DNA from: Nitrosopumilus sp.
GTDB taxonomy: Archaea; Thermoproteota; Nitrososphaeria; Nitrososphaerales; Nitrosopumilaceae
Length of the DNA: 64,000 nucleotides
NCBI GenBank assembly: GCA_965219345.1
Contig: OZ244732.1
Coordinates: 672,001-736,000, forward strand
Direction: 5' to 3'
The position numbers and the translations under genes are program-made. Shown piece by piece: positions 36,723-41,990 of the stretch. The notes under the pieces are model-generated. The model ran no database searches. It worked only from the letters and a program-made list of their open reading frames with translations, and was not told the DNA's origin. The stretch's first letter is position 1; each line of letters opens with the position of its first letter.

Positions 36723-36875
36723 ATGTCAGTAGAAATTACATGTGGTAAATGTGGAGAAAAGATCACAAACATGAAGATGTTAAAATCACTGAAAGATGTA
36801 ATGAACCCTTATAATGGTAAGTGTCCATCATGTGGACAGAAACTTTCTACATCAGAATTTTCACTTGATGTTTAA
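36723..36875 (+). CDS. 50-aa CPxCG-type zinc-finger microprotein (not in ORF track)
   Basis: MSVEITCGKCGEK...KCPSCGQKLSTSEFSLDV*; Shine-Dalgarno AGGTGAT at about 36709-36715. Confidence 0.85.
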   Translation: MSVEITCGKCGEKITNMKMLKSLKDVMNPYNGKCPSCGQKLSTSEFSLDV

Positions 36876-37039
36876 GAAAACTGATCCAAAAGATCTCTAG
36901 AAAAGATCATTTTTATATTTTTAAAAAAATTAGATCGTTGATATTAGAAATCTTTGCATCTTAACAACAGATCTGATCTAAAAATGTCTGAAATAACATA
37001 GTCATAAGTCTTATTACCTCCTAATTTTTAGAAAAGTGC

Positions 37040-39133
37040 ATGGAATTGACTGAAGAGATACCTGAACTAAAGAGAAGTGGAATCCTACAATCTACATCAA
37101 AACGTGTCAGAATGATCTTTTCTGTCATGGCAAGTCCGAATAGAATTGATATCCTCAGAATCCTAAATTCTAAGGGTCCTTTGACCTATTCTGAATTGAA
37201 ATCTTTGGCTGGATTCAAGTCAAAAAAAGAAAGTGGTAAATTTGCATACCACTTGAGAAAATTACTTAGACAATCTCTTGTTGCACTTAATAAATCTGAA
37301 AGACGTTATACCATAACAAATCTTGGAAAACTAGTTTTGAGTTTGGCAAGACAAATTGAAGAAAGATCAATTATTGAAAGTGGAAAAATGTATGTTAGGA
37401 CATCACATGCATCCATTGAGGAATTTAATTCTCATAAAATTATTCAATCACTAGTCCGTGAAGGAAGTCTTCCATTAGAACTAGCACAAAAAATTACTGA
37501 AGAAGTTGAAAATAGAATTTACAAATACCAAACTACCTATCTCACAGGCTCACTAATCAGAGAACTGGTAAATTCTGTTCTCTTAGAACATGGTCATGAG
37601 GAATATCGAAACAAACTTGCACGCCTAGGCCTACCTGTTTATGACGTTCAGGAGATGATTTCCAACTTAGATAATGTGAATAATGGTGCTGAAGGTCTTC
37701 TGTTTAACACTGGACAGACAGTGTTTGCTGAACACTTACTAACTAATCTTTTACCAAAAGATGTTGCAGACTCGCATCTTTCCGGAGACTTGCACATTTC
37801 TAATCCTGGAATTTGGTCAATGATTCCTGACACAATATTTGTTAATGTTAAAGAACTGATTGAAGATGGAATTGATCTTGGTGGAAAATATCTTGATGTA
37901 TCACGAATTCCTGCATCAAAACAACTTAATGAGATTGCAAGTTCATTGTCTATCGTAATTTCTCTTCTTTCAAAAGAAGCTTCCCAAGAAATCGTACTTG
38001 ATGGATTAGTTCAATTGTTTTCAAAACATTCAAAGTCTCTTCCGGAACTTGAACAAAAACTAACTGATGCTTTTGCAACTGCATCTACAACTTCTAAATA
38101 CAATAATACAAGCACCGATGTCTCAATTCGAATACAATTGGGATCTGATACAAAAATAGTCAATTCCATTATTAACGCATACAAAAATTATACAAAGATA
38201 ACCCCAATCCCAAAAATTGGTTTGATAATAGATCTTGACAAGAGAAAGATAACCGATATCTCGAAGTCAGTATCTCAGATAATTTCACTTGGTGGAAAAG
38301 TAATGTTTGCTCAGGGTCAAACATCAAGTTATGGTATAACAAATGGATCTACAAAGACTACAGACTCACTTTCAATAATATTGCAATCTGTTTCCATAAA
38401 CCTTCCGAGACTTGCTTTTGAATCAAATAAAGATGAAACCTACTTTAGAGCAAGACTTGCATTACTAATGAAACCAGCACTATCCTCTATGGCACTAAGA
38501 AAAAAAGACATCTCAGATCTTACTAGAAGAGGACTTAACCCAATTCTTGCAAAGAATACCCAATATATGCAAAGAAGTTCCGTTTCTCTTGTTGTAAATT
38601 TGGTAGGACTCAAAGAAGCAGTATTCAACATACTTGGAGTCCAAGACAACAAGGAGGGACGTGGAATTCTTCATAAAGTCATTGAAACTGCAATTGATGT
38701 TGGAGCCAAAAAAGGTAAAGAATTAGGCACTTCTGTGGCTATTTGCATGACCGAAACCGAAGGCTCACATCGTTTTGCTAGTCTAGATGGTGAGAAATAC
38801 GGCAAGAACTCTGCCCTTAATTCATTGGAAAATGATTCTTATTCTGAAGGAGTGGTGATTGATGCCTCTAAAATTGATGATTATACCAATAAAAGTGAGC
38901 CTATCTCTGAGTGTAACAAATTCTCAAAATTGCTTAACGGAGGATTACTTGTAACATTAAAAATTGATCAAAATGCAAAGGTTGATGAAATTAAAAAATC
39001 AATTGAGAAAGCATCTGCACTTACATCTTCTTTCAAACCTGTTAAGAAAATTTCAATATGTGGTGAATGTGGTTTCAAAGATGAACCGTTTGAAGACAAG
39101 TGTCCAAAGTGCAAGTCACCATATGTTGTCTGA
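37040..39133 (+). CDS. ArsR-like wHTH + ATP-cone + degenerate class III RNR (NrdD-like) fusion
   Basis: SPNRIDIL...FAYHLRKL...YTITNLG; EEFNSHKIIQSL...IRELVNSVL; ADSHLSGDLHI; SINLPRLA; terminal CGECG...CPKC; no RxxGY. Confidence 0.82.
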   Translation: MELTEEIPELKRSGILQSTSKRVRMIFSVMASPNRIDILRILNSKGPLTYSELKSLAGFKSKKESGKFAYHLRKLLRQSLVALNKSERRYTITNLGKLVLSLARQIEERSIIESGKMYVRTSHASIEEFNSHKIIQSLVREGSLPLELAQKITEEVENRIYKYQTTYLTGSLIRELVNSVLLEHGHEEYRNKLARLGLPVYDVQEMISNLDNVNNGAEGLLFNTGQTVFAEHLLTNLLPKDVADSHLSGDLHISNPGIWSMIPDTIFVNVKELIEDGIDLGGKYLDVSRIPASKQLNEIASSLSIVISLLSKEASQEIVLDGLVQLFSKHSKSLPELEQKLTDAFATASTTSKYNNTSTDVSIRIQLGSDTKIVNSIINAYKNYTKITPIPKIGLIIDLDKRKITDISKSVSQIISLGGKVMFAQGQTSSYGITNGSTKTTDSLSIILQSVSINLPRLAFESNKDETYFRARLALLMKPALSSMALRKKDISDLTRRGLNPILAKNTQYMQRSSVSLVVNLVGLKEAVFNILGVQDNKEGRGILHKVIETAIDVGAKKGKELGTSVAICMTETEGSHRFASLDGEKYGKNSALNSLENDSYSEGVVIDASKIDDYTNKSEPISECNKFSKLLNGGLLVTLKIDQNAKVDEIKKSIEKASALTSSFKPVKKISICGECGFKDEPFEDKCPKCKSPYVV

Positions 39134-39296
39134 AATTCGTAAATGAAAAACTGTTTCCGATCATTTTTCAAAATTTTCTGATCAGTTTCTGATGTGGCGA
39201 TCATCGTTGTTTACTATCAAAATTATGGTAGTATGAACTTCATAGTAATGGTGTCAATATTATTGAACTGAGATTTAAGAAAAAATTGCAGAATCA

Positions 39297-39304
39297 TTTA
39301 TACC
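39297..39304 (+). promoter_or_regulatory. TATA box of nrdJ
   Basis: TTTATAC about 40 nt before the TTG start; GGAGA SD-like at about 39326. Confidence 0.5.
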
Positions 39305-39338
39305 CATATGCATCTTAACCTCTACGGAGAGATTATAA

Positions 39339-41990
39339 TTGGACAATTCGCAAATTGAAAGTACTATAAATGAGATCCGAAAGCGTAACGGCACTGTAAC
39401 CATCTTTAATAAAGATAAAATTTCAAATGCTATATTCAAAGCATTGGCAGCCACCTCTAAAGCTGATCGTGGCCTAGCCGAACAACTTACAGATAGTGTA
39501 GTTGACAAACTAGTAGAACAAGGATTTACTAGCACTAAAGCACCTACGGTTGAAGATATTCAAGATATTGTAGAGTCAACTTTAATCGATAGCGGTAATA
39601 GCGATATAGCCAAAGCATACATCGTTTACAGACACGAGAGAAGAAAGCTAAGAGATGAAAAAATGAAAATTTTGAATCTAAAGTCTCTTGATCCAGTTTC
39701 CAAAAAGTTTGATTTGAATTGTTTACGAGTCTTAGCGTCAAGATATCTTTTCAGAAATGGAAAAAGTGAGATCATCGAATCTCCAACTCAAATGTTTGAA
39801 AGAGTTGCAATTCTAGTCGTAATTGGTGATATTCTATATGATTCACAAGTCTTTGACAAAGCAGGAAATATCAACCAAGATACAGATGAAGCAGAATCTT
39901 ATCTTGAAAAACTAGATGCCTTTGACTATAAATTCAAAGTCGGAGACTATTATCTAAATAAATGGCATTTTAGGTCCTTAATCAGTCACTATGTAACACT
40001 TGCAAACAAAGGTCAGATGAAGATTAGCTTCAAAGGACTTTTGACATTACTTGCAGCAAAGAAGCTTGATAGTTATGCAGACAAAATAACCGAATACTTT
40101 GAGCTGATGACCTCACAGGACTTTCTACCAAATTCCCCAACAATGATGAATGCAGGTGGAAGATTAGGACAACTCTCAGCATGCTTTGTACTTAGTATGG
40201 AAGATGGCATGGAACAAATCATGAAATCAACCTCTGATGCAGCATTAATCTTCAAATCTGGCGGTGGCGTTGGAATCAACTACTCTGATCTTCGTGAGGA
40301 AGGCGATATTGTAGCATCAACGTCTGGTGTTGCATCAGGTCCAGTGTCCTTCATGAATATCATCAACACTGTAACTGAAGTTGTCAAACAAGGAGGAAAA
40401 AGACGTGGTGCAAACATGGGAATCATTGAGGCATGGCATCCTGATGTTGAAAAGTTCATCACAAACAAAACAGAACCAGGTGTTTTAGAAAATTTCAACG
40501 TTAGTGTTGGTATCTGGGAAGACTTCTGGCATGCGCTTGTTAACACTAAAGATGGCAACTATGTCTTACGTAGCCCACGTGACAATAAACCAGTTAAAGA
40601 AATTAATGCACATCAACTAATTGATCTGATTGCACTATCTGCATGGAAAAGTGCAGAACCTGGATTGATCTTCTTTGATCAAATTAACAAATACAATGTA
40701 TTTGCCAAAGCCAGACAAGCACCAATAAGAGCAACAAATCCGTGTGGTGAGCAAAGCCTCTATCCATACGAATCATGTAATCTTGGTTCTATCAACTTGG
40801 TAAATCTTGTCAAGAGACAGGCAGATGGAACTTATGAATTTGATTGGCAAAGATATGAAGAAACAATCAGAAAGACAACAAAATTCCTGGATAATATTAT
40901 TGATGTAAATAACTATCCAGTTGAAGAAATCAACGTAGCATCAAAAGAGTCTAGAAGAATTGGACTTGGAGTGATGGGAGTTGCTGATCTCTTATACAAA
41001 CTAAGAATTCCATACAACTCCAAAGAAGGATATGAGCTACAGTCCAAACTATCTGAAGCTCTGACATACTATTCAATGGAAGAAAGTGTTGCACTTGCTA
41101 AATCTCGTGGTGAGTTCCTACTTTGTTCGAAAACAGAATATCCTGAAGGAAAGATTCCAGTATCAGGATATTATGAGAAACCAAAAGAATCTCATTCTTA
41201 TGAATGGGATGCACTAATTGAGAAAATTAAAAAGTATGGTATTAGAAATGTGTTAGCTACTACAGTTGCTCCAACTGGCACACTATCTATGATTGCGGAT
41301 TGTTCAAACGGAATGGAACCTGCATTTGCTCTTGTGTTTGAAAAGAGAGTTACTGTTGGAAGATTCTTCTATACAAACAAAATTGTTGAAGAAGTCTTGA
41401 AAGAAAATGGTCTTTACAGCGATGAACTTCTTGCAAAGATTGCAGACAACTATGGTTCACTGAAAGGAATTGATGAAATTCCACAATGGATGCAAGATGT
41501 CTTTGTAACAGCAATGGATATCCATTGGGCTGATCATCTTATGGCTCAGGGAGTATGGCAAGACTGGATTGGAAATGCAATTGCAAAAACAATCAACATG
41601 CCATATGATGTAACAGCCGAAGATGTGAAATCTGCATATCTGTTAGCACATGAATTAGGACTAAAAGGAATTACAGTTTATCGTGATGGTTCTAGGCACA
41701 AGCAGGTACTTCACATGACAAGTAATAACGCACAAAAGACATTTGAGGTTACACCAAGCGAGCATATTACTGGCTTTGTAACGACTAATATCACAAACCC
41801 ATACATTAAAACTCAAGTCAATGCTGCACTTGCAATTAAAGTTCATGACGAAGAAATTATAACTGAGCCTCTGAAACAAGAAGAGATTTCAGAAGATCGT
41901 CTATGTCCTACATGCAAAAACAATCTTGTCTTTGTAGAAGGTTGTAGTATGTGCATTGAATGTGGCTATAGTGGTTGCACTTCTGGATAA
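39339..41990 (+). CDS. nrdJ: Adenosylcobalamin-dependent class II ribonucleotide reductase with ATP-cone
   Basis: N-terminal ATP-cone, PNSPT, LSACFV, TNPCGEQ, APTGT, GITVYRDGSR, C-terminal Cys motifs. Confidence 0.96.
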   Translation: MDNSQIESTINEIRKRNGTVTIFNKDKISNAIFKALAATSKADRGLAEQLTDSVVDKLVEQGFTSTKAPTVEDIQDIVESTLIDSGNSDIAKAYIVYRHERRKLRDEKMKILNLKSLDPVSKKFDLNCLRVLASRYLFRNGKSEIIESPTQMFERVAILVVIGDILYDSQVFDKAGNINQDTDEAESYLEKLDAFDYKFKVGDYYLNKWHFRSLISHYVTLANKGQMKISFKGLLTLLAAKKLDSYADKITEYFELMTSQDFLPNSPTMMNAGGRLGQLSACFVLSMEDGMEQIMKSTSDAALIFKSGGGVGINYSDLREEGDIVASTSGVASGPVSFMNIINTVTEVVKQGGKRRGANMGIIEAWHPDVEKFITNKTEPGVLENFNVSVGIWEDFWHALVNTKDGNYVLRSPRDNKPVKEINAHQLIDLIALSAWKSAEPGLIFFDQINKYNVFAKARQAPIRATNPCGEQSLYPYESCNLGSINLVNLVKRQADGTYEFDWQRYEETIRKTTKFLDNIIDVNNYPVEEINVASKESRRIGLGVMGVADLLYKLRIPYNSKEGYELQSKLSEALTYYSMEESVALAKSRGEFLLCSKTEYPEGKIPVSGYYEKPKESHSYEWDALIEKIKKYGIRNVLATTVAPTGTLSMIADCSNGMEPAFALVFEKRVTVGRFFYTNKIVEEVLKENGLYSDELLAKIADNYGSLKGIDEIPQWMQDVFVTAMDIHWADHLMAQGVWQDWIGNAIAKTINMPYDVTAEDVKSAYLLAHELGLKGITVYRDGSRHKQVLHMTSNNAQKTFEVTPSEHITGFVTTNITNPYIKTQVNAALAIKVHDEEIITEPLKQEEISEDRLCPTCKNNLVFVEGCSMCIECGYSGCTSG

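Follow-up and report, generated by a model that had tools for sequence, protein, structure and literature searches.

What does a protein built like an anaerobic ribonucleotide reductase (RNR) do in an archaeon of an aerobic lineage? The question is raised by a gene in a stretch of 64,000 nucleotides of Nitrosopumilus sp. (assembly GCA_965219345.1, contig OZ244732.1, positions 672,001 to 736,000), which we call the window and whose numbering is used unless another contig is named. The gene, delimited by its open reading frame (ORF) and by Pfam, lies on the plus strand at 37040–39133 (stop codon TGA at 39131–39133). It encodes 697 amino acids, in which a winged helix-turn-helix (wHTH) and an ATP-cone precede a body resembling NrdD, the class III RNR. 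An earlier note on this DNA, made from the letters alone, had described the product as a dead RNR fused to a wHTH and proposed it as a candidate nucleotide-sensing regulator of nrdJ, the next gene. What that note said about the sequence itself proved correct throughout. In our main reading, to which we give a probability of roughly 55%, the protein descends from an inactive NrdD paralogue and acts as a dimer that binds DNA and regulates transcription for deoxyribonucleotide/nucleotide supply.

Results

Domains and fold of the protein

The domain order described in the earlier note (ArsR-like wHTH, ATP-cone, NrdD-like body, C-terminal Zn site) is recovered both by Pfam and by the positions of the motifs. 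The ArsR-type wHTH takes up residues ~26–106 (37115–37357, plus strand like all parts of the gene) according to Pfam, the family profile and the AlphaFold2 model. In Pfam, DUF7347 matches residues 26–100 (E 2.7e-10, 40.8 bits vs a cut-off of 27.6) and HTH_20 residues 30–82 (E 8.2e-8, 32.5 bits vs 27). The ATP-cone PF03477 follows at residues 117–189 (37388–37606; E 1.1e-7, 32.7 bits vs 25.8). Residues ~206–660 (37655–39019) form an NrdD-like alpha/beta-barrel body without catalytic residues, as assigned by Foldseek and the family profile, with the motifs ADSHLSGDLHI, SVSINLPRLA and LVGLKEAV at residues 243, 450 and 521, respectively. The C-terminal NrdD-type Zn ribbon (39020–39130) is made of the CxxC pairs C674/C677 and C688/C691. 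The protein matches NRDD (PF13597) with E 3e-26 and 92.6 bits against a cut-off of 26.2, the best stretch being residues 448–693. All seven NCBIfam NrdD models score far under their curated cut-offs (best TIGR02487, 84.8 bits vs 326.35), and so does NF033788, the NCBIfam HTH_metalloreg model, stay under its own (23.6 bits vs 55).

The AlphaFold2 model, calculated from a 97-sequence family alignment, has a mean predicted local distance difference test score (pLDDT) of 91.3 and a predicted template modelling score (pTM) of 0.82. It consists of a three-helix wHTH with a wing, then the ATP-cone, then a large alpha/beta body. More specifically, the wHTH has helices at residues 33–45, 50–56 and 62–77 and a wing at 81–92, with pLDDT about 95. 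The third helix carries GKFAYHLRKL and is probably the recognition helix; this motif is almost invariant over the 97 family sequences, and H71, Y90 and G96 are invariant.

When the model was compared with the PDB using Foldseek, the top ranks were held by class III RNRs only (E 1.5e-22 to 1e-15), led by S. thermophilus 9dca (1.5e-22) and T. maritima 4col (1.6e-18) and followed by P. copri 8p2c (1.7e-18) and phage T4 1hk8 (2.3e-16); class I/II enzymes came next, at about 1e-9. The TM-scores, normalised to target length, were 0.5–0.67. A single-sequence query of the PDB gave marginal matches only (4coi, E 0.034) and a family profile was required: it matched 9d3x (1.9e-41), 8p23 (1.8e-39), 4coi (1.8e-35) and 1h78 (1.5e-31), and its N-terminus matched HlyU, NolR and ArsR structures at about 1e-4. 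Fold and profile together confirm that the body is an RNR barrel.

Modelled as a homodimer, residues 201–697 reach a score of 0.79 vs 0.00 for the best control. Among proteins of solved structure, 20 of 30 that form pairs attained this mark, as did 1 of 23 that appear as single chains. Contacts are shared between runs to at least 95%, the partner pLDDT is at least 82, and the predicted interface is formed by helices 281–313 and 339–354. It is important to note that this pass may simply reflect likeness to NrdD, because NrdD dimers are solved structures.

Loss of the radical chemistry

In the parts of the P. copri NrdD study on which we draw (PMC11226230), the radical resides on Gly711, the initiator Cys416 sits at the tip of a loop through the barrel, a second cysteine (Cys171) lies on the first barrel strand and an NxN flap closes over the substrate. 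The 697-residue protein has Cys only at positions 569, 625, 674, 677, 688 and 691; the earlier note was thus correct that roughly the first 570 residues lack it (none within residues 1–568). It also ends right after the Zn site, as had been remarked, 6 residues past C691; it has no 'GY' dipeptide and no glycyl-radical loop, and all three downstream frames contain stops.

We aligned 116 distinct HTH-fused members of the family with 20 true archaeal NrdDs, of which 4 are encoded beside an HTH paralogue and 16 come from a homologue search. The cysteine of the first strand (beta1) is found in none of the 116 vs all 20 true enzymes, the finger-loop Cys in 3 vs 20 and the radical Gly in 13 vs 20; any tail at all is missing in 53 of the HTH-fused proteins. 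Of the three radical residues a member has one at most, and 100 of the 116 have none. The loss of the finger-loop Cys, read earlier from a single sequence, thereby holds for nearly all HTH-fused members. The remnant of this loop in the window protein (residues 425–443, QGQTSSYGITNGSTKTTDS, 38312–38368), delimited by the AlphaFold2 model and the alignment, sits between the modelled strands 420–424 and 444–454 and aligns with the QCC(R/A) loop of true NrdDs. Relative to the family, the PMGCRSFL tip of solved NrdDs is an insertion in the profile alignments, and so is their TNCC segment.

When the window protein was aligned with 20 distant paralogues, the loop was still discernible as G-x-R-(L/F), with Cys in 1 of the 21 sequences. 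In the same alignment the place of SR(I/V)TGYY of true NrdDs is mostly taken in the paralogues by a sequence like SRSSAKYLP, with Ala at the Gly position. For crystallography, the T4 enzyme was reportedly made inactive by a Gly-to-Ala change at the radical position. Where true NrdDs have the E-N-A-N flap segment, 106–116 of the 116 HTH-fused members show a gap. The four Zn-ribbon Cys align with those of true NrdDs and are retained in at least 80% of the members.

No activase gene was seen near the locus in the earlier note, and this absence extends to the whole assembly scanned (1.91 Mb, 2 contigs, 99.5% complete), in which the best match in the search for NrdG, to TIGR02495, reaches 48.3 bits vs a cut-off of 131.15. 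The three best radical S-adenosylmethionine (SAM) matches in the genome are two QueE-like proteins and the tetraether lipid synthase Tes. The genome has no second NRDD match and, at E<=1, no Gly_radical domain; that is, neither a separate glycyl-radical domain nor NrdG was found that could restore activity. In 61 genomes of the same family, from 27 genera, NrdG2 never exceeds its cut-off. Because all three radical residues are missing and the genome is without activase, it is close to certain that the 697-residue protein is a pseudoenzyme, a dead class III RNR.

The two QueE-like radical-SAM paralogues of the source genome are encoded at L003 1288–2001 (minus strand) and L004 1447–2127 (plus strand). 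The L003 protein is weak for all curated families (best 73.5 bits vs 260.1) and bears a low-scoring likeness to glycyl-radical activases (PFLA 54.8 and NrdG2 48.2 bits).

Spread, phylogeny and selection

A search of 1.84 billion representatives returned 1240 relatives with E<=1e-3, 190 of them with E<=1e-30, and 352 of 401 genomes sampled within the phylum match the family profile at E<=1e-10, true-NrdD matches included. The best 150 listed matches all start at or before profile position 10, so the wHTH is included, and at least 22 family-level groups are represented; the named members belong to Nitrososphaerota and Bathyarchaeota. Protein-atlas clusters with the same domain set, commonest in Thermoproteota, Promethearchaeota and Nanobdellota, are taken as leads only. 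No HTH Pfam domain occurs among 120 listed homologues of a true archaeal NrdD.

The family is thus old and spread over the phylum, and no Nitrosopumilus novelty, in view of the number of family-level groups and of anaerobes in which the gene lies directly upstream of nrdD. The Nitrosopumilus protein stands on the most reduced branch. Three grades of reduction can be told apart: proteins of 740–780 aa with a degenerate tail after the ribbon, proteins that end at the Zn ribbon, as here, and ribbonless ones. In a FastTree phylogeny of 136 sequences, calculated without the HTH columns, one branch with support 100 splits the 116 HTH proteins from the 20 true NrdDs, which are all archaeal and of two subtypes. 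The tree is effectively unrooted, and this single separating branch fits a single origin of the family. We also noticed that several true archaeal NrdDs of 1137–1206 aa (P0260, P0403–P0418) carry intein/homing-endonuclease domains (PF14528, PF14890, PF05204).

The reading frame is intact in all 57 family genomes searched, the source genome included, and the ratio of nonsynonymous to synonymous substitution rates (dN/dS) of the whole gene is 0.084 against 69 orthologues. By segment, each taken against 59–70 equal-length orthologues, the median dN/dS comes to 0.009 (wHTH), 0.028 (cone and linker, residues 115–205), 0.096 (body) and 0.093 (Zn ribbon); these ratios are approximate because dS is near 0.8–1.0.

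At 44 of 81 orthologous loci (e.g. L010, L013, L016 and L017) the frame starts 18–26 codons further upstream, which adds an acidic, Asp/Glu-rich extension ahead of the wHTH; the window copy and 36 others are without it. The L017 contig, filed as a Phycisphaerales bacterium metagenome-assembled genome (MAG), holds an 89%-identical copy of the gene and is probably mis-binned.

Retention of the ATP-cone and fate of the other effector sites

The cone begins with V-R-T-S, as it does in 2 of the 4 adjacent true NrdDs, whereas canonical cones begin with V-x-K-R-D-G. The P. copri enzyme, in the sections of its description relied on here, binds phosphates through Lys7 and Arg8 (PMC11226230). With the canonical Lys-Arg replaced, binding of ATP/dATP by the cone of the wHTH protein can be put forward as a candidate function only; the VRTS variant probably belongs to working archaeal enzymes, since adjacent true NrdDs share it. 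V119 and R120 are kept in at least 90% of the family and both are common to true archaeal NrdDs.

The 20 true NrdDs have 232 columns with a conservation of 90% or more; at least 80% of the family keeps 38 of these, and 111 are lost. Half of the kept columns (19 of 38) fall in the cone and linker (residues 119–202). The core motifs that survive are D244/H246/G249, N454-L-P-R, G523/E526, R578/D583, Y601 and GG634–635; they may serve ligand binding or only the maintenance of the fold. The ATP-cone, in its variant form, appears from the alignment to be the sole allosteric site retained. The suggestion in the earlier note that the allosteric sites of the RNR are reused therefore stands for the cone and fails for the rest, as the specificity-site helices are unconserved and the NxN flap is deleted.

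Apart from nrdJ and the wHTH gene, no gene of this genome encodes an ATP-cone over the cut-off, from which it follows that NrdR is absent. Among the NCBIfam matches at E<=1 the NrdR family is likewise absent.

Gene neighbourhood

The intact nrdJ reported in the earlier note does follow on the same strand, at 39339–41990, and is the presumed target. It encodes a class II RNR of 883 residues that depends on adenosylcobalamin, with its own ATP-cone (TIGR02504 723.5 bits vs 399.95; Ribonuc_red_lgC 1.7e-146; ATP-cone 3.7e-22). In a set of 81 close loci, the window and 80 Nitrosopumilaceae contigs, nrdJ lies directly downstream on the same strand in 78, the misses being two contig ends and one rearranged locus. 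We also inspected 20 distant loci, picked on score and family code with their neighbours unseen at selection. An RNR gene is directly next in 6 of them: a true nrdD in 4 (L089, L091, L099, L108) and nrdJ in 2 (L097, L103). Thus the wHTH gene stays beside the lineage's own class of RNR, nrdJ in the close loci and nrdD or nrdJ in the distant ones. These counts are not independent, because the loci are kin.

Among the 20 distant loci, 10 have pyrB and 11 have pyrI a few genes downstream. The order HTH gene, (nrdD), pyrB, pyrI recurs with and without nrdD, which suggests that nrdD belonged to an ancestral cluster and later disappeared from it or changed place.

Three nrdD clusters include redoxin genes. 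A glutaredoxin-like gene stands between the HTH paralogue and nrdD in L091 (7533–7859, minus strand) and L108 (10552–10857, plus strand), and a thioredoxin-like gene follows nrdD in L089 (12579–12851, plus strand). These are hints of redoxin-dependent class III enzymes in the anaerobic archaea concerned. In the window itself, an ORF of 50 aa with two CxxC pairs lies just 5' of the wHTH gene (36723–36875, plus strand); its zinc-ribbon and DZR Pfam matches are weak and all under cut-off.

Candidate cis elements

The 205-bp intergenic region before nrdJ (39134–39338) holds candidate operators and a promoter, as judged from the footprint of 64 distinct orthologous regions. Its GATC boxes lie at 39159–62, 39180–83 and 39199–202. 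The 9-bp palindrome CGATCATCG (39198–39206) is present in 57 of 78 orthologous spacers and has only 3 copies in the genome, both orientations counted. The 13-bp palindrome TATGAACTTCATA (39232–39244) / TATGAAnTTCATA is found in 45 of the 78, and a TATA-like TTTATA (39297–39302), usually 41–42 bp 5' of the start codon, in 51. The upstream region of the wHTH gene (36876–37039, 164 bp) has 6 GATC and a conserved core-promoter-like block, AGTCATAAGTCTTATTACC (37001–37019).

GATC is enriched 5–10 fold in both flanking promoter regions over about 80 orthologous loci. At least three GATC occur in 64 of 78 nrdJ spacers. The median density, taken over 66 spacers, is 1.86 per 100 bp, as compared with a mean of 0.23 and a 95th percentile of 0.92 for 172 intergenic segments elsewhere in these loci. 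Among 426 intergenic segments compared in the source genome, the nrdJ spacer ranks 16th; the region upstream of the wHTH gene, with 3.66 per 100 bp, is denser than all 426. At least three GATC lie within 170 bp 5' of the latter gene in 63 of 79 loci. These upstream regions were measured from the first in-frame ATG (corrected start codons); their MAFFT footprint is unreliable, given the loci that start further upstream. The commonest spacings between boxes, 10, 11 and 20 bp before the wHTH gene and 18–21 bp before nrdJ, fit putative sites on one face of the helix at both promoters. The GATC boxes and the two palindromes are candidate operators only.

Two further elements were rejected. An 11-bp palindrome before the wHTH gene, ATAAGnCTTAT, is probably just a TATA-like core promoter and is exact in only 25 of 81 loci. 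The 10-mer GCATCTTAAC occurs in both window promoters and has 4 genome copies; its conservation among relatives is only partial.

Elsewhere in the genome, the divergent promoter between the genes for GINS (Sld5-domain) and the RFC small subunit (G000:C1:313424–313616) was scored as the most GATC-dense intergenic segment (7 in 193 bp), with the palindromes GATCAATTGATC and GATCGATC. At least three GATC lie within 200 bp before RFC in 23 of 29 family loci with upstream sequence. These boxes may be a cis element of replication genes, any link to the nrd promoters being speculative. The intergenic segment G000:C1:1505408–1505789 counts 8 GATC and repeats a sequence of about CTGTTCAAAAGTGATCC three to four times in direct orientation, possibly as an array of origin-recognition boxes.

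Discussion

How the protein may work

Our results indicate that the protein is likely a DNA-binding regulator, the DNA binding being predicted from the wHTH. Sensing of ATP/dATP and control of nrdJ are a reasonable inference from its anatomy and gene neighbourhood. We propose that an old paralogue of archaeal class III RNR lost its radical chemistry and gained an N-terminal ArsR-type wHTH. The retained ATP-cone would read the ATP/dATP state, and the dead barrel would serve as a scaffold for dimerisation and signal transmission. The two HTH domains of the dimer would then bind operators at the protein's own promoter and at that of the neighbouring RNR gene, which would be nrdJ here and nrdD in anaerobic relatives. 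Much of the earlier proposal of a nucleotide-sensing regulator survives in this scheme, as the protein is dead, wHTH-fused and RNR-linked and its HTH and cone are the most constrained segments; what has been dropped is allosteric reuse beyond the cone.

A wider version of the scheme is possible, although we would not bet on it. A fossil class III RNR would then be the archaeal counterpart of NrdR across much of Archaea: a wHTH-pseudoenzyme dimer with a variant cone, acting as an ATP/dATP-read switch for the lineage's RNR and for itself, possibly also for pyrBI or replisome genes. In ammonia oxidisers it would work via helically phased GATC boxes, having outlived nrdD when they turned aerobic and took nrdJ.

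Comparison with known systems

NrdR is the bacterial RNR repressor that combines a Zn ribbon with an ATP-cone and is rare in archaea, according to those portions of the literature on which we rely (PMC9110341, PMC12176259). Likeness to it lies in a DNA-binding module joined to an ATP-cone, in an RNR-linked gene and in candidate repeated boxes at whole helical turns. Homology is, however, limited to the cone, which starts with VRTS and not KRDG. Putative DNA binding would occur via an ArsR-type wHTH instead of an N-terminal Zn ribbon, a dead RNR body of ~490 residues follows the cone, and the sole Zn ribbon is C-terminal and NrdD-derived. By analogy, the protein may work like NrdR in outline, without being a member of the NrdR family.

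With the class III NrdDs of T4, T. maritima, P. copri and S. thermophilus the protein shares the ATP-cone, the barrel fold, the Zn ribbon and several core motifs, and its family forms one group beside the 20 true archaeal NrdDs sampled. It differs from them in lacking the beta1 Cys, the finger-loop Cys, the radical Gly, the NxN flap and an activase, and in the added wHTH. RbkR, in which a riboflavin kinase is joined to a wHTH, has a double function as kinase and regulator (PMC5397151). In the part of that description used here, RbkR resembles the NrdD-like family in joining an enzyme-type ligand-binding body to a wHTH and in being encoded beside its proposed target pathway, whereas in the NrdD-like family catalysis is lost throughout and the scaffold is a radical enzyme of ~600 residues. 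ArsR/SmtB metalloregulators share the wHTH fold (HTH_20 over its cut-off and the HlyU, NolR and ArsR profile matches). The sensor part of the family protein is instead the cone and RNR body, and the HTH_metalloreg score is under its cut-off. A thiolate metal site of the ArsR/SmtB kind is absent, because residues 1–568 contain no Cys; sites of the His/Asp/Glu type lie outside this comparison.

Evidence against the proposal and alternative explanations

Several observations weigh against a regulator of RNR genes. DNA binding, nucleotide binding and regulation are all predictions. The cone is without the Lys-Arg of VxKRDG, and the specificity-site helices and the substrate flap are unconserved with true NrdDs, the flap being deleted. 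In 14 of the 20 distant loci no RNR gene lies inside about 8 kb, and linkage within a phylum can be inherited synteny instead of functional coupling. The 20 distant loci show no GATC enrichment, despite a conserved recognition helix. The genome has GATC clusters in other places too (45 in all with at least 5 per 200 bp, 16 of them with at least 6), and the GINS/RFC promoter shows that GATC-rich promoters are not unique, its arrangement of boxes being different. The conserved palindromes lie 55–100 bp upstream of the nrdJ TATA box, where an activator would be more at home than an NrdR-like repressor. Gene copies of relatives are covered by contigs from four RNA-library runs (4/4, four studies), mostly at 90–95% identity; these contigs show only that such libraries contain the copies, carry-over of DNA is possible, and we did not use them as evidence.

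Among the alternatives, the one that survives best is a broader regulator of nucleotide metabolism or replication-linked genes (pyrBI, RNR, perhaps the replisome), for which nrdJ would be one target of several; we consider it improbable, yet worth keeping in mind. pyrB and pyrI lie near the gene in the distant loci more often than an RNR gene does (10–11 vs 6 of 20), in 3 loci the divergent neighbour is an amino-acid-kinase-family gene, and the densest GATC cluster of the genome, between GINS and RFC, is conserved among family loci. On the other hand, the pyrBI linkage may be inherited gene order and pyrBI is not near the gene in the window. The boxes of the GINS/RFC promoter (GATCAATTGATC, GATCGATC) have spacings of 4 and 8, unlike those of the nrd promoters (10–11 and 18–21).

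A second alternative is a role through protein contact, in which the pseudoenzyme would pair with NrdJ or NrdD to buffer nucleotides or modulate RNR and the wHTH would be a protein-interaction or nucleoid-tethering module. Such a role would account for a large barrel that is constrained (dN/dS 0.096) beyond the needs of a simple sensor, for barrel motifs in common with true NrdDs (D244/H246/G249, NLPR, G523/E526, R578/D583, Y601) and for a gene that adjoins a true RNR gene. We nevertheless find it quite unlikely, as the wHTH is the most conserved part (dN/dS 0.009, with GKFAYHLRKL almost invariant), which is expected of sequence-specific DNA contact.

That the protein is still an enzyme, a class III-like reductase supplied with a radical by a separate subunit or another cofactor, is very hard to believe. 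The fold and the Zn ribbon are kept, and single radical residues persist in relatives (Gly in 13 and loop Cys in 3 of 116). Against this stand the absence of all radical residues here and of any member with more than one, the deleted NxN flap, the score of 84.8 bits vs the NCBIfam NrdD cut-off of 326.35 and the intact nrdJ. In addition, the genome is without NrdG, Gly_radical domain and second NrdD, and no NrdG exceeds its cut-off in the 61 family genomes. A decaying relic with no present function, which the stepwise loss of catalytic residues and C-terminal tail over the family might suggest, has practically no chance, since it is already contradicted by the selection data (frame intact in 57/57 genomes, dN/dS 0.084) and by persistence in at least 22 family-level groups.

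Naming and significance

The regulator of nucleotide supply that we propose has relatives under other names. Close homologues are called 'anaerobic ribonucleoside-triphosphate reductase', 'ribonucleoside-triphosphate reductase' or 'helix-turn-helix domain-containing protein' in their sources, and the expectation that annotation pipelines would take it for an anaerobic RNR is thus confirmed. No description of an HTH-fused inactive NrdD was found in the full-text literature, supplements and subscription journals being outside the scope of the search, and the sections available of PMC9110341, PMC12176259, PMC11226230, PMC9531940 (RNR phylogeny) and PMC2795772 (RNRdb) do not mention the family. 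In aerobic ammonia oxidisers the label of an anaerobic RNR can mislead metabolic reconstruction and the inference of oxygen lifestyle from metagenomes.

The control of RNR genes and of deoxyribonucleoside triphosphate (dNTP) supply in archaea is largely open, and this family is a concrete and widespread candidate that standard assays can address. It retains a graded series of decay, from the Gly-to-Ala tail through tailless to ribbonless proteins. If our reading is true, it would clearly exemplify the reuse of an entire radical enzyme as a sensor and regulator.

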